Assembly: GCA_029882335.1 (NCBI GenBank)
Contig: JAOUKW010000056.1
Span: 1-15,466, forward strand
Origin: Candidatus Heimdallarchaeota archaeon
Lineage (GTDB): Archaea > Asgardarchaeota > Heimdallarchaeia > Heimdallarchaeales > Kariarchaeaceae
Length of the DNA stretch: 15,466 bases
Reading direction: 5' to 3'
Of the stretch, positions 3,713 to 12,088 are shown one piece after another. The position numbers and the translations under genes were made by a program. How positions within the stretch are numbered: position 1 is the first letter of the stretch; the number at the start of each line of letters is the position of its first letter. The notes beneath the pieces were generated by a model. The model made no database searches and was not told where the DNA came from. It saw only the letters and a list, made by a program, of their open reading frames with translations.

Positions 3713-4477
3713 ATGCATCCACTATTGGATCAATCATTATCTGCTGAGAGAAGGATTCAAGCTTGTTTTCAATTACAAAATGAAGAAATTGAGCTGGCTG
3801 TAGAATTATTAAGTCAGGGTTTATTTACCGATCCTAGTCCAATCGTTAGGCATGAATGCGCATATACACTAGGTGAAATCTCAACACCTCAATCTATTAA
3901 ATCACTTATTCATGCAATAGAAACAGATTCTAATGATTTTGTTGTTCATGAAGCTGCATTAGCTCTATCGAATCTAGGTGAAGGTGCACAATATTTTCAA
4001 AACTTATTAAAATCAAATAATCTCGATATTGTATGTACTGCTGAAATTTCGCTTCAAAGAATGAAGATGAAAAAAAATCAACAATCAATTGAAGATTTTA
4101 CATCATCCTATAATTCTCTTATCATGGATTTACATAAACCTGCTGAACATAGAATTCAAGCTGCATTTAAATTGATGAAGGAGGGTTCTGAATCCTCCAT
4201 AACTCAACTGATTTCTGCGATGAAACAGGAGTCAGACCCAATCGTAAAACACGAGATCATATTTTCTCTTGGTGAGACTGCATCCATAATTGCTGCAGAG
4301 GCATTGGCCCAAGAGTTAGAGAAGGATGCAAATTTATTTGTTATCCATGAAAGTCTTCTTGCTTTGGGAACCTTGGGTTATCCTGATTATTTACCAATAA
4401 TATCTAGTTTTCTTGAACACGAACATGCAGACATAAAGGAATCTGCAGAAATCGCAATAGAACGGCTTCAATCATAA
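3713..4477 (+). CDS. HEAT-repeat protein with four His-Glu pairs in two symmetric halves; deoxyhypusine hydroxylase (DOHH)-like.
   Basis: There is an internal duplication: AERRIQACFQL...DPSPIVRHECAYTLGEI...NDFVVHEAALALSNLG is mirrored by AEHRIQAAFKL...SDPIVKHEIIFSLGET...ANLFVIHESLLALGTLG. The HE pairs fall at about residues 47, 80, 181 and 213 (spacing 33/101/32). This matches the spacing and flanking residues of eukaryotic DOHH motifs (xLLKHELAYCLGQ, PMVRHEAGEALGAIG, and RFRALFTLR before each half), as recalled from memory. Phycobilisome-lyase-type HEAT repeats normally have VRxxAAxALG without HE. Confidence 0.85.
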   Translation: MHPLLDQSLSAERRIQACFQLQNEEIELAVELLSQGLFTDPSPIVRHECAYTLGEISTPQSIKSLIHAIETDSNDFVVHEAALALSNLGEGAQYFQNLLKSNNLDIVCTAEISLQRMKMKKNQQSIEDFTSSYNSLIMDLHKPAEHRIQAAFKLMKEGSESSITQLISAMKQESDPIVKHEIIFSLGETASIIAAEALAQELEKDANLFVIHESLLALGTLGYPDYLPIISSFLEHEHADIKESAEIAIERLQS

Positions 4478-4522: not shown

Positions 4523-5308
4523 TTAAACTTCATGTTTTGTTTGAATAATAAATTCTTTTGTTGTAATGTAATCTTCAAATGATATTTGTAGTGCTCCGCT
4601 GAGTGGATTATCCATATCATGAATTATGATATATGATAGAAAGACTAATACAGAAACAGAGAAAAGAATTATAATATATAATTTGAAACTTTCAAATCCA
4701 TCAATTAGGTACCCAAACCAGAAGAAAAATGATGCAGTGATATAAAATACTCGAAGCATTCCTGGCATTTGGCTTTTACAATGTTTTATTCTTTGTGATC
4801 GTGCGGTTGCTAATTTTTGATATGCATGCATGATTGATTCAAATGCAATTGGATCTCGGGGATCATCAAATTTTATTTTATCAATAACTCTTATAATGGC
4901 AATTAATTCTTTTGATGGATATTTCACAGGTTTCTGATTTCTTAACAGGTCAAACTCTGAATTTAATGTGGAATCAATATAGTTAATTAATGCTGGCTTC
5001 ATTTTATTGGTGGTTTCCTCACTGTTTAGATAATCACAAAAATTCCAAAGTGATACCAAAGCGTTTGCTTCTTCTGCAAATACATTCTCTGTAGATGTAA
5101 AATGAGACCACACCGTAACTAAAATAAATGCTGTAATCAGGGAGTACAATGTTCCCATTACTCCAATCACATCTGATATTCTTATTTCTGATAATTCAAT
5201 ATACAAATTCTTAAAAAATTGATGATAAATCACTCCAAAAAGTGTTGATGTGAAAATATAAATAGTCGTTTTAACAATCAACTTTGATTTTTTATATGGA
5301 TGTTGCAT
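4523..5308 (-). CDS. Hypothetical membrane protein (261 aa), arranged as 2 TM - soluble domain - 2 TM.
   Basis: N-terminal hydrophobic segments (TTIYIFTSTLFGVIY, VIGVMGTLYSLITAFILVTVW), a central soluble region of about 120 aa, and C-terminal hydrophobic segments (VFYITASFFFWFGYLI, LYIIILFSVSVLVFLSYIII). Confidence 0.6.
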   Translation of the reverse strand: MQHPYKKSKLIVKTTIYIFTSTLFGVIYHQFFKNLYIELSEIRISDVIGVMGTLYSLITAFILVTVWSHFTSTENVFAEEANALVSLWNFCDYLNSEETTNKMKPALINYIDSTLNSEFDLLRNQKPVKYPSKELIAIIRVIDKIKFDDPRDPIAFESIMHAYQKLATARSQRIKHCKSQMPGMLRVFYITASFFFWFGYLIDGFESFKLYIIILFSVSVLVFLSYIIIHDMDNPLSGALQISFEDYITTKEFIIQTKHEV

Positions 5309-6657: not shown

Positions 6658-7284
6658 TCAATTCGTACCTCTTTCAATTTCGTTATCAGGTATATATTTT
6701 GTATAATATCCGATATTATTGAGAATTTTAATTAATTCTTCAAGTCTTATATTCAACTTTTGTTCATTCAATAGCTGTTGCTTATCCAAAGGACTAAGTT
6801 GCAATGTAAATATGATACCATTTAGCAGATCTTCTGCAGGTATTTTATTTAAATCCTCAACAATAATTCTGCTTCTTTTTGAAAATTCGTTCATTGAATG
6901 AAGTAATTTATCTGTTAGTGTGGTTTTATTATTTTCATTCTCCCAGTATTCTGGTCTAATATTAATAATTTTACCCTGTTTATATGGTGTTATTGTATCA
7001 TTAAGTTCTTCAATTTCTACCGTTTGGATACCATGTAAAACGATGTTTGATCTACCATCTGTAAGTGATTGATGGTGGATTATTTTTCCAATGGTTGCAA
7101 TGTGATTTGGCTTATTATTGGCCATCAATTGTGTTATACAAATTAATCTTTCATTTTCAGGTAATGCAAGCATATCTTTAATCATTATCTGATATCGGTT
7201 TTCAAAGATATGTAGTGGCAAAATGACTCTGGGAAAGAAAACCATATCAGATAGTGGAAAGAGGGGATATGATTTTCCTATCAC
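6658..7284 (-). CDS. Stand-alone Lon protease N-terminal (substrate-binding, PUA-like) domain protein; no ATPase or protease domain.
   Basis: N-terminus YPLFPLSDMVFFPRVILPLHIFENRYQIMIKDML matches the LON_N hallmark (LPLfPL..vlFPg..lpLhIFEpRY). It is 208 aa and ends 3 bp from the ACAD stop on the opposite strand. Confidence 0.8.
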   Translation of the reverse strand: MIGKSYPLFPLSDMVFFPRVILPLHIFENRYQIMIKDMLALPENERLICITQLMANNKPNHIATIGKIIHHQSLTDGRSNIVLHGIQTVEIEELNDTITPYKQGKIINIRPEYWENENNKTTLTDKLLHSMNEFSKRSRIIVEDLNKIPAEDLLNGIIFTLQLSPLDKQQLLNEQKLNIRLEELIKILNNIGYYTKYIPDNEIERGTN

Positions 7285-8426: not shown

Positions 8427-9320
8427 TTAGTCATCTTCAAGGATGTCTATTGCCTTCTTATTTTTTAATTTACTTAGGGTTGGTTGTTCTGAATGACCTC
8501 GAGTAATGAGATACATTTGCTCTTTTTTTGCCCACACATATCCTTTTTCTCCTTTTGAGAAGTTGTCATGGGGAAATGCGCCTATAGCTAATTCAGTACT
8601 GATATATCCATCTCTTCTTTTAATATGAACCATGCCTGCTTTATCCTTTGTAACTGAATGTTGAACAGTAGCAATATCACCTCTAGAAACATGTTTAATT
8701 GGTACAATTACTGTTTTAGCATAATTTGCGATGATGTAGGCAAACAATTTAGAGATAAAATAACCACTCATAATTGCTAGAAACAGGTTCCAATCTTGCA
8801 AATTATCAATTAATGACCATCCAACTTGACCAAATATTAATGTAAATACTGCAATATTTCCCATCATATAGTTTGATTTCTCTACATGGGCATCATGTAC
8901 AATACCAGCATCAATTTGATCTGGTAGATGATCGAAATGACCTTGCAAGACGGAATGTTCTGTAGAGGTTTCAAGGAGGGAATCACTATTAAGATCGCCA
9001 TCAAAGTCATGACCATCCATATCAAAGTCGGTGTCGGCATCAAAGTCATGACCATCCATATCAAAGTCGGTATCTGCATCAAAGTCATGACCATCCATAT
9101 CAAAGTTGGTATCGGCATCAAAGTCATGACCATCCATATCAAAGTCGGTATCGGCATCAAAGTCATGACCATCCATATTGTGTGAGTCTACATCAGAATC
9201 TTCATCTCCAAGTCCACCTATGATGGTAAATACTAGAAATATCAATCCAAAAAAGAATGAAGTGATGAAGATAATCAACCATACTTCTAGTGGTAATAAG
9301 TTCACAATTAATTTTGTCAT
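8427..9320 (-). CDS. NfeD-like membrane protein (short form, C-terminal OB-fold) with an inserted Asp/His-rich tandem-repeat region.
   Basis: N-terminal TM (LIIFITSFFFGLIFLVFTII), then roughly 5 copies of MDGHDFDADTDFD, then further TM segments. The C-terminal beta-rich segment (GMVHIKRRDGYISTELAIGA...GEKGYVWAKKEQMYLI) is typical of NfeD OB domains. GGAGG SD lies 7 nt upstream. The gene starts 23 bp after the flotillin stop, so this is an operon. Confidence 0.85.
   Translation of the reverse strand: MTKLIVNLLPLEVWLIIFITSFFFGLIFLVFTIIGGLGDEDSDVDSHNMDGHDFDADTDFDMDGHDFDADTNFDMDGHDFDADTDFDMDGHDFDADTDFDMDGHDFDGDLNSDSLLETSTEHSVLQGHFDHLPDQIDAGIVHDAHVEKSNYMMGNIAVFTLIFGQVGWSLIDNLQDWNLFLAIMSGYFISKLFAYIIANYAKTVIVPIKHVSRGDIATVQHSVTKDKAGMVHIKRRDGYISTELAIGAFPHDNFSKGEKGYVWAKKEQMYLITRGHSEQPTLSKLKNKKAIDILEDD
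8999..9180. repeat. Direct tandem repeat, 39-bp unit x ~4.7 copies, in frame inside the NfeD-like gene.
   Basis: Unit catcaaagtcatgaccatccatatcaaagtcggtRtcgg at 8999-9037, 9038-9076, 9077-9115, 9116-9154, plus a partial copy from 9155. The copies are near-identical (1-2 mismatches). On the minus strand the unit encodes MDGHDFDADTDFD. Confidence 0.9.
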
Positions 9321-9327
9321 ATAATTT

Positions 9328-9332
9328 CCTCC
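9328..9332 (-). promoter_or_regulatory. Shine-Dalgarno (GGAGG) for the NfeD-like gene.
   Basis: Minus-strand AAGGAGGAAATTAT-ATG, with a 7-nt spacer. Confidence 0.5.
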
Positions 9333-9343
9333 TTGAATTTACT

Positions 9344-10948
9344 TTAAACAATGAGCTGTCTTAGTTCAGAGAGTTGAATGTCTGGTTTTCCATCTCCATC
9401 AAGATCCAACGCATCAACTATTCCATCACCATCATTGTCAATGAAGGTCACTTGTTCTGGAAAGGGGAAATCTATTGTTCCATTTCCATTCAAATCTACA
9501 CCATTTACATTTCCATCACCATTTAAATCAACAAATGATATTCCTGGTGGTAGTTTGGGGAGCTCTAATTTTAATTTTTCAGGATTCCCATTCTTAGGTG
9601 ATTGTCCGCGAATTGATCTCATTAAACCTTCGAGATCCAATCCAAATGATTTAGCAAGTGCCATTACTTGTAGTAAATTCTTAGGAATAATTCCTAAAGG
9701 CGAATTTTCACCATCTGAAGAATTATTACCACCCATATTTAACCAGTTAATGTCACCTACTTTCATTGAACTTGCAATATTTGGTAATTGATTTACAAGT
9801 TCTTGCAATATCATAGCTTCATTCACCATACCTTGTGCTTTTACTTTTTCTCTCAGACCTTCTGCTTCAGCAAGTAAGATTGCCTTTTTACCCTCTGCTT
9901 CTGCCAAAAGTGATTGTTTCTTTGCTTCGGCTAGCTTGATCTCAGCTTGGGCATCCATATCTGCTGCAAGTAATTTTGCTTGTGCCTCAATTTTGATTGC
10001 CTCCGCTGTAGCTTCTGCCATTAGTTTTTTCTGCTGTGCCTCTACTTGGATATTTTCGAGTATGTGTTTTCTCTTTTTAGCTTCTGCCTGTAATTCAATC
10101 TCCATTAACTTTGTTTCAGCTTCTACCTGAAGTTTTTCCTTTTCAAGAGTGGCAATTTTTACTTCTCGGGTTTTCTGGAGTTCTTGTACAGTTCTAAGTC
10201 TTTGTTCTTCTTGATGATTCATTTTCTCTGTTTCTTGAACAACAACTTTATCTCTTTCTAGTTCTGAGATTTGTACTTCTTGTGATGAAAGAGCTCTTGC
10301 TTTTGCAATTTCTTTTTCTGTTTCTATCTTCTTGTTCTCTGCATTTAGCCTGGCTTCTTGTTTGTATTTTTGTTGAAGGTCCTCAAAAAGGTCTACATCT
10401 AATACATCTACATGTCTAATTTCTGCAGTATTTATTTTAATACCCATTGGACCTACCACTGTAACTAATTCAGCAACTAATGCCTCTATTATGAGTGATC
10501 TCTCTCTGAGAACTTGATCCAATGATAATCTTGCTACGGTTGTTCTAACTATACTTTCCACCAATCTTGATATTGTCTCATTAATGTGTGTCATTACACC
10601 TGATCCTTTATTACCAGATAAACTCTGATAGGCAATCTCTGGGTTCTCAATTCTCCATAAAACAAATCCAATAACTCTAACATCTTGGTTTTCTGCAGTG
10701 ATAACCTCACCAGCGTTAACTTCTAATTGTTGTACTGTAGTAGTTAAAACAATTAATTGGTCGATTAATGGAAGGACAAAGTATCCTCCACCATATCCAC
10801 TGTTCTTCAGCACACCATTTCTAAATCGAAGCACAAAATCCTGATTTGTGAATTTTCTGTATCGACTTTTTATAATAGCTATGGTTGCAGTCATAATAAT
10901 GAATGCACTAAGTGCAATCGTTAATCCGGTTTGAAATTCCTTTACCAT
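9344..10948 (-). CDS. Flotillin-type SPFH/band-7 membrane scaffold protein with a C-terminal calcium-binding (DxDxDG) repeat tail.
   Basis: N-terminal TM (LTIALSAFIIMTATIAII), an SPFH domain (about aa 50-230) and a long Glu/Ala/Lys-rich coiled coil with flotillin-style EA repeats (LLAEAEGKKAILLAEAEGLREKV). The C-terminus reads DLNGDGNVNGVDLNGNGTIDF...DNDGDGIVDALDLDGDGKPD, i.e. four DxDxDG loops. AGGTGA lies upstream of the ATG. Confidence 0.9.
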   Translation of the reverse strand: MVKEFQTGLTIALSAFIIMTATIAIIKSRYRKFTNQDFVLRFRNGVLKNSGYGGGYFVLPLIDQLIVLTTTVQQLEVNAGEVITAENQDVRVIGFVLWRIENPEIAYQSLSGNKGSGVMTHINETISRLVESIVRTTVARLSLDQVLRERSLIIEALVAELVTVVGPMGIKINTAEIRHVDVLDVDLFEDLQQKYKQEARLNAENKKIETEKEIAKARALSSQEVQISELERDKVVVQETEKMNHQEEQRLRTVQELQKTREVKIATLEKEKLQVEAETKLMEIELQAEAKKRKHILENIQVEAQQKKLMAEATAEAIKIEAQAKLLAADMDAQAEIKLAEAKKQSLLAEAEGKKAILLAEAEGLREKVKAQGMVNEAMILQELVNQLPNIASSMKVGDINWLNMGGNNSSDGENSPLGIIPKNLLQVMALAKSFGLDLEGLMRSIRGQSPKNGNPEKLKLELPKLPPGISFVDLNGDGNVNGVDLNGNGTIDFPFPEQVTFIDNDGDGIVDALDLDGDGKPDIQLSELRQLIV

Positions 10949-11308
10949 ATTTCATTTCACCTTGTGTTTAATTAGCTATATAGTTAATATAATATGATAT
11001 TTTGTTTTATATCATCATATGCTTATACTATTTACTATGTTTCTGTATAAATATTCTCGTGGCAAATAATAAATACATTCTATATATTATATATATTATA
11101 TATATAAAATGTATAATTTGATATAAGCTCTGTAATCAACTGAAATACTATAATTACTAATCAAAGCATTAATTTCTTTGCAGAAGTATAAATGTCAATG
11201 TAATTTGATTGTAATCAAAAAATCACTTAATGTGTAAATATGTTGATGTTTTTATGTATTTGTGTGAAAAAATCAATAAATCAGTACTAGGGAGTTATAT
11301 ATAATAAA

Positions 11309-12088
11309 ATGAAATTTACCATAATGGGAATATCAACTCGTATACAAATGTTGAATCCTTCCTTAAGGCCTTCTAATGCCAAAACTAGGTCATCTCAGAA
11401 ACAAAAAACACTACCAAAGAAACAAACCAAAAATAAAATGAGTGAGACCTTTCAAAATAAAAGTATATATTTCTACCGCATTTTATTACACGTATTTGCA
11501 TTCACAATGGCCGTGACAAGTTTAGTTGCATATGACCCTGTAACTCTGACAGGCTTTATATTAATCCCACTAATACTCTGGATTACCCATAAATCCATCG
11601 TTAATGGTGTAGAGATATTTATTCAGATATCTTTCTTTACCATACGTTTTTTCCATTTAACTACTGCATCTCTACTCGATGGATTCACTGAACGACCCTA
11701 TCAAACTTCAAAAGGAAAAAAAATAATTCCTGAATTGAATAAATCGCTATCAGCTAAAAAGACTAATTCAAAAACAAATAAAGGAAAAATATACATCACA
11801 GAGAAAAAATACAATGAGGTTAAAAATAGAAAAAATGTCTCACTATTAAGGGGTATTATCTGTCTAATTGTATTAGTTAGTTCGATTCTTTTTATAATTT
11901 GGCTGGTTTTATTGGTTCTGAATACTAATCTTGAAGGATATGTGAATGATCCTGGTATTCCACCATTGATACGGAATTATTTCTTCTTTATTGTAAATTT
12001 CAAGGTTTTTTTTATATTTCCTATATTCGGGCTGATACAAGAAATATTTGGGAGTATTCGTATAGGTGGGATTAAACTTATCAAATAA
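11309..12088 (+). CDS. Hypothetical orphan membrane protein with basic low-complexity segments; the start codon is uncertain.
   Basis: ORF of 259 aa containing Lys/Ser/Thr/Gln-rich stretches (PSNAKTRSSQKQKTLPKKQTKNK; KKTNSKTNKGK) and 4-5 hydrophobic helices. Alternative internal starts (MGIS..., MSETFQNK...) are equally plausible. No similarity was recognised. Confidence 0.45.
   Translation: MKFTIMGISTRIQMLNPSLRPSNAKTRSSQKQKTLPKKQTKNKMSETFQNKSIYFYRILLHVFAFTMAVTSLVAYDPVTLTGFILIPLILWITHKSIVNGVEIFIQISFFTIRFFHLTTASLLDGFTERPYQTSKGKKIIPELNKSLSAKKTNSKTNKGKIYITEKKYNEVKNRKNVSLLRGIICLIVLVSSILFIIWLVLLVLNTNLEGYVNDPGIPPLIRNYFFFIVNFKVFFIFPIFGLIQEIFGSIRIGGIKLIK

Follow-up and report, generated by a model that had tools for sequence, protein, structure and literature searches.

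A 39-nt in-frame repeat in the polyanionic loop of an NfeD-like protein encoded beside a flotillin in Heimdallarchaeia

A membrane protein gene that lies beside a flotillin gene in Heimdallarchaeia carries an in-frame array of 39-nt repeats, and this array sits in a polyanionic loop that recurs in every full-length relative of the protein. The explanation that we favour, and that we consider about evenly balanced between right and wrong as a whole, is that the array would have grown recently, in frame, through slippage or unequal exchange, within a conserved and intrinsically disordered loop of an NfeD-like operon partner of flotillin. The OB fold of this partner would dock on the flotillin scaffold, by analogy with bacterial NfeD proteins, and the loop would serve on the cytoplasmic side as a multivalent module, either electrostatic or binding cations with low affinity, placed beneath or inside the flotillin basket, with a length tuned by repeat number and a possible effect on flotillin assembly. 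What evolution would have kept is the character of the loop, i.e., Asp/Glu in strict alternation with His or with small or hydrophobic residues, a near absence of Lys/Arg and, in full-length members, a length of 68-170 aa. Ca2+ or Mg2+ would be candidate ions, bound by carboxylates and Dx[DN]xDG motifs, and in His-rich loops transition metals would be candidates too. The features of the window, i.e., the whole stretch of 15,466 nt that was analysed, on which the argument depends are as follows.

8427-9320, minus strand: gene of the NfeD-like membrane protein, 297 aa, with TM1, acidic loop, TM2, TM3, OB-fold domain and C-terminal helix
8505-8678, minus strand: five-stranded beta domain with NfeD-type OB fold, aa 215-272
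8712-8873, minus strand: TM helices 2 and 3, aa 150-203 (AF2 helices 150-168 and 175-203, pLDDT >90)
8880-9209, minus strand: acidic loop, aa 38-147, predicted disordered (pLDDT 31-47 across aa 39-147 in both models)
8982-9176, minus strand: five in-frame 39-nt units encoding MDGHDFDADTDFD, aa 49-113 (Tandem Repeats Finder and unit-by-unit comparison)
9210-9293, minus strand: TM helix 1, aa 10-37 (AF2 helix, pLDDT about 90-97), with a conserved FFFGL motif
9321-9343, minus strand: 23-nt spacer from the flotillin stop (TAA, 9344-9346) to the nfeD-like ATG, read from the sequence
9344-10948, minus strand: flotillin-like SPFH/Band_7 gene, 534 aa, operon partner (Pfam Band_7, E 1.1e-22)
9371-9529, minus strand: flotillin C-terminal tail, aa 474-526, in which five Dx[DN]x[DN]G motifs (EF-hand/dockerin-like) overlap

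A single array was detected by Tandem Repeats Finder; it occupies 8994-9178, with a period of 39 nt, 4.7 copies, 95% matches, no indels and a score of 342. In frame, the units follow each other in the order MDGHDFDADTDFD, MDGHDFDADTNFD, MDGHDFDADTDFD, MDGHDFDADTDFD, MDGHDFDGDLNSD; units 1-4 are 1-2 nt apart in pairwise comparison, through two synonymous changes and one D>N, and in unit 5 the final 17 nt have diverged, with 7-9 differences from the others. An earlier sequence-only reading of this DNA had called the repeat perfect in its title and near-identical in its text, and the second wording is the accurate one, since units 1-4 differ by 1-2 nt and unit 5 has diverged. The period, the 4.7 copies and the presence of about five in-frame copies of a 13-residue motif in the NfeD-like ORF were read correctly, and the coordinates then given, 8999-9180, are replaced by those above. 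Two overlapping ORFs, at 8882-9172 on the minus strand and 8928-9185 on the plus strand, were set aside as by-products of the repeat, as they lie wholly inside the array in other frames and it is the long ORF that has conserved homologues.

Fold, family and genomic neighbourhood

SPFH/flotillin scaffolds with NfeD partners are found across all life, and the role of NfeD is poorly understood. The window protein is highly likely to be an NfeD-like partner of this kind. Its AF2 model, built on 22 sequences, reaches pLDDT >90 in the TM helices and the OB domain and is of high confidence everywhere but in the loop; it displays a hydrophobic membrane anchor N-terminal to a five-stranded C-terminal OB fold of the NfeD type, and places the array between the first TM helix and the later TM and beta domain, as had been proposed. 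TM2 and TM3 are joined by the short, K/R-free loop DNLQDWN, and the conserved motifs MGNIS..FGQIGW and NYAKTVIVP also speak for this pair of helices. The top Foldseek matches are 8z5g (QmcA-YbbJ, 144 columns aligned to full-length YbbJ), 3cp0 and 3wwv, with modest E-values (best 2e-3). In E. coli QmcA-YbbJ, binding between the OB domain and the SPFH partner is seen (PDB 8z5g).

The NfeD label given from the sequence is thus borne out by fold, architecture and flotillin synteny, and finds no backing in any sequence model tried, be it Pfam, NCBIfam or hhalign. In particular, Pfam (E <= 0.1) and NCBIfam returned no NfeD, YqiJ or other credible family for the window protein, and the Pfam NfeD (PF01957, COG1585) and YqiJ models matched none of seven relatives at E <= 10 and none of five further members at E <= 1; no other credible family came up for these 12 relatives either. 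A PDB hmmsearch with two family profiles retrieved no NfeD chain, only chance matches such as MotA and LH1, and hhalign found no match to E. coli YqiJ, nor to an alignment of 10 YqiJ sequences (probability <1%). As a control, E. coli YqiJ matches YqiJ_N and YqiJ_OB (PF21001, PF07290) at E 1e-15 and 2e-14, whereas the Heimdall proteins do not. The family is tiny, with 23 representatives among 1.84 billion, and all labelled members belong to Heimdallarchaeia; the relatives are only 23-51% identical overall to the window protein. A search with the loop alone recovered only the same gene from another assembly and no other protein family at detectable similarity, and one with E. coli YqiJ recovered only 209-aa enterobacterial proteins with short linkers. 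We are thus dealing with a small NfeD-like family limited to Heimdallarchaeia (Hodarchaeales among them), which escapes current sequence models and bears an adhesin label in public records.

The same-strand tandem arrangement implies that the flotillin and the nfeD-like gene would be co-transcribed. A GGAGG stands at 9328-9332, 7 nt upstream of the nfeD-like start. Besides Band_7, the Pfam model Flot and the NCBIfam model FloT match the partner flotillin below their cut-offs. A Band_7 gene is present at most two genes away in eight of 11 loci. Either gene may come first, as the flotillin does in the window, L007 and L011, and the arrangement is divergent once; no nearby flotillin gene was found at the remaining three loci (L001, L003, L013). 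The flotillin C-terminal tail closes the dome cap in solved SPFH complexes. Here the tail gives weak, sub-threshold matches to Dockerin_1 and FG-GAP_3 in Pfam, and similar tail loops occur in four of six partner flotillins. At another locus, the LC_2 orthologue adjoins a CopZ-like HMA gene; a link to heavy-metal operons was not counted as evidence because such a neighbour is seen at just one of the 11 loci.

Character, placement and possible role of the acidic loop

On a TM-based count the window loop has 117 aa, of which 31% are Asp, 9% His and one Lys/Arg, and a net charge of -39. Its acid-x-acid alternation is far above that of shuffled sequences (z = 5.2), with 2 adjacent acidic pairs versus 13.3 expected. 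Every full-length member has, between TM1 and TM2, a loop of 68-170 aa in which Lys/Arg are nearly absent; K/R counts are 0-4 and net charges -5 to -49 in 21 of the 21 loops examined, and 14 of these show acid-x-acid alternation with z = 2.7-8.6, adjacent acidic pairs being nearly absent. The loops of P0007, P0013, P0016 and L007 are His-rich with little alternation. The insert is therefore not lineage-specific, as could have been thought, and only the 39-nt unit of the window is. Its description as a length-variable module foreign to canonical NfeD proteins holds, as it is absent from short NfeD and the D/H-containing linker of E. coli YqiJ has only ~30 aa. In-frame arrays exist with units of 39 nt (window), 27 nt (L007), 66 nt (L001) and 24 nt (L003). 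Since the unit differs between lineages, expansion has recurred, and since all relatives have such a loop, the repeat in the window is just the most recent expansion within a conserved feature. Very probably, what is under selection is the character of the loop and not its sequence, so that lineages have rebuilt it with different repeat units. The distinguishing part of this Heimdallarchaeia family is thus a poly-Asp loop that is hypervariable yet compositionally constrained.

A passive spacer would be another account, in which a low-complexity tether between TM1 and TM2 is tolerated and changes by neutral slippage, has no ion role, and is acidic for solubility and to stay off the anionic membrane. 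The loop has no sequence conservation, varies widely in length among full-length members, is built from repeat units that differ in every lineage and is predicted to be disordered, all of which would suit such a tether. However, its composition is tightly constrained at 23-51% identity (0-4 K/R, adjacent acids avoided, period-2 z up to 8.6), and the charge pattern of a neutral spacer would be expected to drift, so that its maintenance across the family argues against neutrality; an enrichment in cation motifs is moreover common to the loop and the partner flotillin tail. On these grounds we consider a passive spacer unlikely. Even if the loop did not bind cations, it would still offer a clean case of a disordered region in which charge pattern is conserved over sequence, with recurrent repeat turnover.

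As for sidedness, Lys/Arg residues are found after TM3 (AKTVIVPIKHVSRGD) and after the flotillin TM (KSRYRK), but none occur in the TM2-TM3 loop; by this positive-inside pattern the acidic loop would rather probably lie on the cytoplasmic side, together with the OB domain and the flotillin, and not form the surface loop that had been suggested. The bulk of the flotillin should be cytoplasmic, as KSRYRK directly follows its single TM. In S. aureus FloA-NfeD, the OB domain of NfeD is cytosolic and binds the flotillin coiled coil (PMC11222466). The placement is not secure, because the charge difference across TM1 taken alone would favour an outside loop: the N-side flank is near neutral and the C-side flank extremely acidic, which by the charge-difference rule gives N-in, loop-out. 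An acidic repeat located outside would bind environmental Ca2+ or metals or contact the cell envelope, and it would agree with the fact that Dx[DN]xDG, dockerin-like and thrombospondin-like motifs are commonest in extracellular proteins (PMC3123361) and with the surface-protein-like, Thr-rich C-terminal anchors in which the upstream genes at L003 and L013 end. Three TM helices would, however, put the OB domain outside as well, against the Lys/Arg cluster after TM3, the cytosolic position of NfeD OB domains (PMC11222466) and the cytoplasmic bulk of the partner flotillin, and an extracellular loop is accordingly improbable.

The binding of cations by the loop appears to us about as well argued for as against. 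In the window, Dx[DN]x[DN]G motifs number three in the loop, five in the flotillin tail and zero in the other 12 ORFs (3634 aa). Those of the loop are DFDMDG at aa 59, 85 and 98, at the unit junctions, and contain the linear motif Dx[DN]xDG, which binds Ca2+ in many structural contexts and folds (PMC3123361). The relatives P0006 and P0011 carry DLDGDGxPDGIDLDGDGIID. Together with 9% His and strict Asp alternation, the three motifs make metal binding by the loop plausible as far as sequence can tell. Besides the window protein, only seven of the 21 relatives scanned have Dx[DN]x[DN]G, so that Ca2+-loop chemistry is not a conserved feature of the family, and the loop is without structure in AF2 (pLDDT 31-47 in both models), which supports no binding geometry. 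If the loop lies in the cytoplasm, the normally very low level of free Ca2+ there would speak against a role in Ca2+ buffering.

The preferred explanation can be made more specific as a cation-triggered beta-meander, in which each 13-residue unit would supply one amphipathic strand (H-D-F-D-A-D-T-D-F-D-M) and an Asp-Gly turn of two residues. An antiparallel sheet of five units would result, with an all-Asp face (about 25 carboxylates) opposite a Phe/Ala/Thr/Met/His face. Folding would require cations to bridge the Asp face, and the membrane or a second sheet would be the docking site of the hydrophobic face. This arrangement would account for the strict period-2 alternation, which is far above shuffles in most family members, and the DG turn would give a register with D opposite D and F opposite F across strands. 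Gly breaks (DLG, DGH, DGD) recur between the alternating runs in relatives, and a designed (Phe-Asp)5 peptide acts likewise (PMC9078708). On the other hand, AF2 gives no strands in this low-confidence region, a result to be read knowing that AF2 models no ions and that the loop is poorly aligned; neither the length of the strands nor the spacing of the turns is conserved across the family, and alternation is missing in the His-rich members. We thus regard such a fold as unlikely.

A bolder extension of the cation-binding explanation, which we find less probable still, would be that flotillin baskets are cation-regulated in Heimdallarchaeia. A loop of ~40 carboxylates per NfeD-like subunit, in which Asp alternates with hydrophobic residues or His, would fold or condense on Ca2+, Mg2+ or transition metals and, with the EF-hand-like Dx[DN]xDG loops in the tails of many partner flotillins, create an ion-gated or ion-buffering membrane microcompartment, whose capacity would be set by repeat number. 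Heimdallarchaeia are the closest archaeal relatives of eukaryotes, and if the loop binds cations, this would be a first clue to the regulation of archaeal flotillin scaffolds in the lineage closest to eukaryotes.

Assemblies and turnover of the array

Two further public contigs span the array. L010 is 100% identical across window positions 8974-11992, including the whole array with the same five units, and L004, which comes from an independent JGI metagenome, matches the window at 99.77% identity and also spans the whole array with the same five units. The six differences between the window and L004 (a 2.6-kb contig) all fall at 9072-9186 of the window, i.e., in or next to the array; unit 3 of L004 equals its unit 4, so that its unit content differs from that of the window array. 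Five units are thus found in all three contigs spanning the array, a comparison with just two near-identical relatives in which all may be short-read assemblies. Scanning genome contigs with the family profile for further relatives spanning the array yielded no loci, and scanning metagenome contigs yielded one contig only, already in the comparison set. The suggestion that the array is recent and prone to copy-number change is hence supported as to fast turnover, by the clustering of all differences in or beside the array, whereas the copy number is the same in the three assemblies. On/off phase variation was rejected, since slippage by units whose length is divisible by three cannot silence the gene.

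The array could in principle be an artefact, through expansion or collapse by the assembler or an ORF that is not real. Short-read assemblers do break here, since L010 terminates 20 nt and L004 about 92 nt away from the array, and variant positions inside the units may be mis-phased. Nevertheless, expansion or collapse, raised earlier as a possible flaw, is unlikely because two other contigs span the array with the same five units. A broken frame had been feared as well, and ORF 8427-9320 is intact; the C-terminal half is highly conserved in the 23 family representatives, with E down to 1e-81, and periods that are multiples of three are likewise found in the arrays of relatives. All in all, a real in-frame repeat is practically certain, and an artefact or mis-called gene very improbable.

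Comparison with known systems

Two NCBI records (P0001 and P0030) are named 'MSCRAMM family adhesin SdrC, partial', and a cell-wall adhesin of the MSCRAMM Sdr type has virtually no chance of being the right identification, as NCBIfam ClfB and SdrD score 11.3 and 10.0 bits on the Asp-rich stretch only, versus cut-offs of 999 and 2500 (NF033845 and NF012181 tested), the architecture is TM, loop, two TMs and OB fold, and the host is an archaeon. This spurious annotation arises because the Ser-Asp regions of staphylococcal SdrC, SdrD and ClfB, like the window loop, are long Asp-rich dipeptide-like repeats arising from tandem DNA repeats; unlike MSCRAMM adhesins, the window protein has no A domain, B repeats or sortase signal, and organism, architecture and context differ.

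The designed Asp/Phe peptide shares the alternation of Asp with hydrophobic residues, forms beta-sheets and adsorbs calcium and phosphate (PMC9078708), but it is a synthetic 13-mer biomaterial, whereas the natural loop is broken by MDGH, tethered between TM helices and of predicted structure only. With the Ca2+ loops of EF-hand, dockerin and thrombospondin type-3 proteins, the unit junctions of the window have in common Dx[DN]xDG, as DFDMDG three times. Unlike in an EF loop, position 8 is Asp and not Ile/Val/Leu, and flanking helices and Cys are absent; the motif is missing from two thirds of the family, and the Dockerin and FG-GAP matches of the flotillin are sub-threshold.

Among NfeD2 flotillin partners (B. 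subtilis YuaF, 2k14; E. coli YqiJ), YqiJ has a linker of about 30 aa that is neither repetitive nor alternating, and hhalign of the window family against the YqiJ alignment finds nothing. The best structural matches are the short NfeD proteins (E. coli YbbJ, 8z5g; C. glutamicum, 3cp0; P. horikoshii PH1510-C, 3wwv, and PH0471, 2exd). The window protein differs from them in having no detectable sequence similarity, one more TM helix at the N-terminus and a polyanionic loop of 110 aa, and it shares with them a multi-helix membrane anchor followed by a five-stranded OB fold, with an SPFH gene adjoining.

The tandem array in the window and in related assemblies

The window contains a single strong array at positions 8994-9178 (period 39, 4.7 copies, 95% matches, no indels, score 342 by Tandem Repeats Finder), located on the minus strand within the intact 297-aa open reading frame (8427-9320) of the NfeD-like protein. 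It encodes in frame five units of 13 residues (aa 49-113; window 8982-9176), where units 1-4 have the sequence MDGHDFDADTDFD apart from single-nucleotide differences, two of them synonymous and one causing an Asp>Asn change, and unit 5 retains MDGHDFD and then diverges. The array call and the in-frame units confirm the repeat and show that its coordinates, unit, copy number and frame had been read correctly from the sequence alone; the same reading had called it perfect, which these differences do not bear out, and its interpretation as a metal-binding, spacer or surface-loop module is partly supported. The other frames over the array contain two short ORFs (8882-9172, minus; 8928-9185, plus), which were discarded as by-products of the repeat.

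Two public contigs, from the same organism or one nearly identical to it, cover the whole array, both with five units. One (L010, GCA_029880815.1) matches window 8974-11992 with 100% identity and stops at 8974, 20 nt beyond the array; the other (L004, JGI metagenome 3300022205) aligns over 2637 nt at 99.77% identity and stops about 92 nt past the other side, at about window 9270. The array thus behaves as an assembly breakpoint. The window and these two contigs show no difference in copy number, and further scans for close relatives yielded nothing new. The six nucleotide differences that separate L004 from the window all fall at 9072-9186, inside or directly beside the array, and the other ~2.4 kb of the alignment has none. 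Compared unit by unit, L004 has identical units 3 and 4 and a unit 2 with different variants, which looks like unit turnover or gene conversion with net copy number unchanged; short-read mis-phasing of strain variants is a possible alternative source of the same differences.

A polyanionic loop with alternating acids

In this repeat, a conserved polyanionic, alternating-Asp loop has undergone its most recent expansion. All 21 loops examined sit between TM1 and TM2, with a length of 68-170 aa in full-length proteins, 0-4 Lys/Arg, a net charge of -5 to -49, and Asp and His contents of up to 31% and 17%, respectively; the window loop has 117 aa, 31% Asp, 9% His and a net charge of -39. The loop sequences are not alignable across the family, and the repeat units vary by lineage.

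Repeat units in relatives of the window protein
P0010: DHDFDTGIDSDL
P0006, P0011: DLDGDGIPDGIDLDGDGIID
P0012: DGHDGDHG
P0014: DHDxxxDHD
Family member of locus L007: DGHDTHFDA, four copies

The in-frame DNA arrays of the window (39 nt), L007 (27 nt, 3.9 copies, 92%; 2492-2597), L001 from Heimdallarchaeota LC_2 (66 nt) and locus L003 (24 nt) appear to have arisen independently. A core DGHD..FDA is common to the units of the window and of L007, whose protein is distant (about 36% identity in the conserved half); this could reflect common ancestry or convergence.

What is conserved is the pattern. Acid-x-acid alternation exceeds composition-preserving shuffles in the window (z = 5.2) and in 14 of the 21 loops (z = 2.7-8.6), adjacent acidic pairs are almost absent (in the window, 2 observed vs 13.3 expected), and the residues between acids are mostly Leu, Phe, Thr, Ala, His, Ser, Met and Ile. 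Such a constraint is more specific and stronger than plain acidity, and it counts against reading the loop as a neutral spacer.

Fold and distribution of the NfeD-like family

No family match was obtained for the 297-aa protein in Pfam or NCBIfam; the sole matches, to the ClfB and SdrD adhesin models, reach 10-11 bits against cut-offs of 999 and 2500. These weak matches explain the spurious name 'MSCRAMM family adhesin SdrC, partial' carried by the partial products of both L010 and L004. Structure was predicted with AlphaFold2 from a 22-sequence alignment, in agreement with an earlier first model.

Predicted segments of the NfeD-like protein
aa 10-37: helix, block-mean pLDDT mostly >90
aa 39-147: unstructured stretch, pLDDT 31-47
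aa 150-168 and 175-203: helices, block-mean pLDDT mostly >90
aa 215-272: five-stranded beta domain, block-mean pLDDT mostly >90
After the beta domain: short C-terminal helix

Since every sequence-level test for NfeD or YqiJ membership failed, the protein as modelled is NfeD-like in fold and architecture yet a separate sequence family. A profile of the conserved C-terminal half recovered only 23 representatives (E <= 1e-3) among 1.84 billion cluster representatives, each cluster having one or two members, and all taxonomically labelled members are Heimdallarchaeota or Hodarchaeales. The family is a Heimdallarchaeia-restricted, previously unrecognised flotillin partner. A few genes downstream of P0011, the unlabelled contig L013 encodes an Arf/Ras/Roc-family small GTPase (4095-4445), consistent with an Asgard origin.

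Flotillin linkage, sidedness and putative cation motifs

The flotillin-like Band_7/SPFH gene (534 aa; 9344-10948, minus; Band_7 E 1e-22) ends 23 nt before the nfeD-like start, and GGAGG lies 7 nt upstream of the nfeD-like ATG. Across the family, a Band_7 gene is found at most two genes away in 8 of 11 loci.

Gene arrangements
Flotillin then nfeD-like: window (23-nt spacer), L007 (overlapping ATGA), L011 (12-nt gap)
NfeD-like then flotillin: L002, L005, L012
Divergent pair: L014
One gene apart: L015
No nearby Band_7 gene: L001, L003, L013

Several neighbouring features were also recorded. Upstream of the flotillin/nfeD-like operon, the divergent intergenic region (360 nt, AT-rich) holds a microsatellite of A and T only, (TA)n with ATATATTAT-type units (window 11073-11115), which is possibly promoter-associated. 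A Bestrophin-like domain (PF14023, E 3e-27) was identified in a 261-aa membrane protein (window 4523-5308, minus); in eukaryotes, bestrophins act as Ca2+-activated anion channels. In L001, whose orthologue has no adjacent flotillin gene, a 72-aa CopZ-like heavy-metal-associated protein with an MTCGSC motif (6868-7086) follows 12 nt after the orthologue, the only such neighbour in the 11 loci. In the DLDGDG-type subfamily loci L003 (2-154) and L013 (1-222), likewise without an adjacent flotillin gene, the 3' end of the upstream gene encodes a Thr/Glu-rich stretch followed by a TM helix and a basic tail, which looks like a surface-protein C-terminal anchor.

As for sidedness, a Lys/Arg cluster lies past TM3 (AKTVIVPIKHVSRGD), the TM2-TM3 loop has no Lys/Arg, and KSRYRK follows the single TM of flotillin and is conserved in orthologues. 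By the positive-inside rule, this placement would put the OB domain, the acidic loop and flotillin all in the cytoplasm; this assignment is fairly probable and no more than that, because the very acidic sequence following TM1 argues for the opposite.

DFDMDG occurs at the unit junctions, and Dx[DN]x[DN]G motifs number three in the loop, five in the flotillin tail and none in the other 12 window ORFs (3634 aa).

Flotillin C-terminal tail
aa 474-526 (window 9371-9529, minus): five overlapping Dx[DN]x[DN]G (EF-hand/dockerin-like) motifs

Of six orthologous or partner flotillins of related loci, four have similar tail loops (e.g., DLNNDGEVDYKI), and against Pfam the tail gave Dockerin_1 and FG-GAP_3 matches below threshold only. 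Ca2+ binding by this linear motif is known from many structural settings (PMC3123361); as it is found in the loops of only 7 of 21 relatives, the motif is not a family-wide feature. The 13-residue unit might also form a sheet by strand pairing: if the Asp-Gly of MDGH made a two-residue turn, neighbouring strands would stand in a register of D opposite D and F opposite F, giving one all-Asp face and one hydrophobic/His face, a reading that the AlphaFold2 model, unstructured over aa 39-147, does not support.

The candidate mechanism judged most likely is an electrostatic or cation-binding function beneath the flotillin scaffold. The more specific idea of a flotillin basket gated by cations, in the archaea most closely related to eukaryotes, is improbable on present evidence. 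With the classical SPFH-NfeD pair, of which linkage in several arrangements is the signature (PMC2636767), the window family has such linkage in common; in parallel, the predicted cytoplasmic OB domain agrees with S. aureus NfeD, whose OB domain is cytosolic and binds the flotillin coiled coil (PMC11222466).
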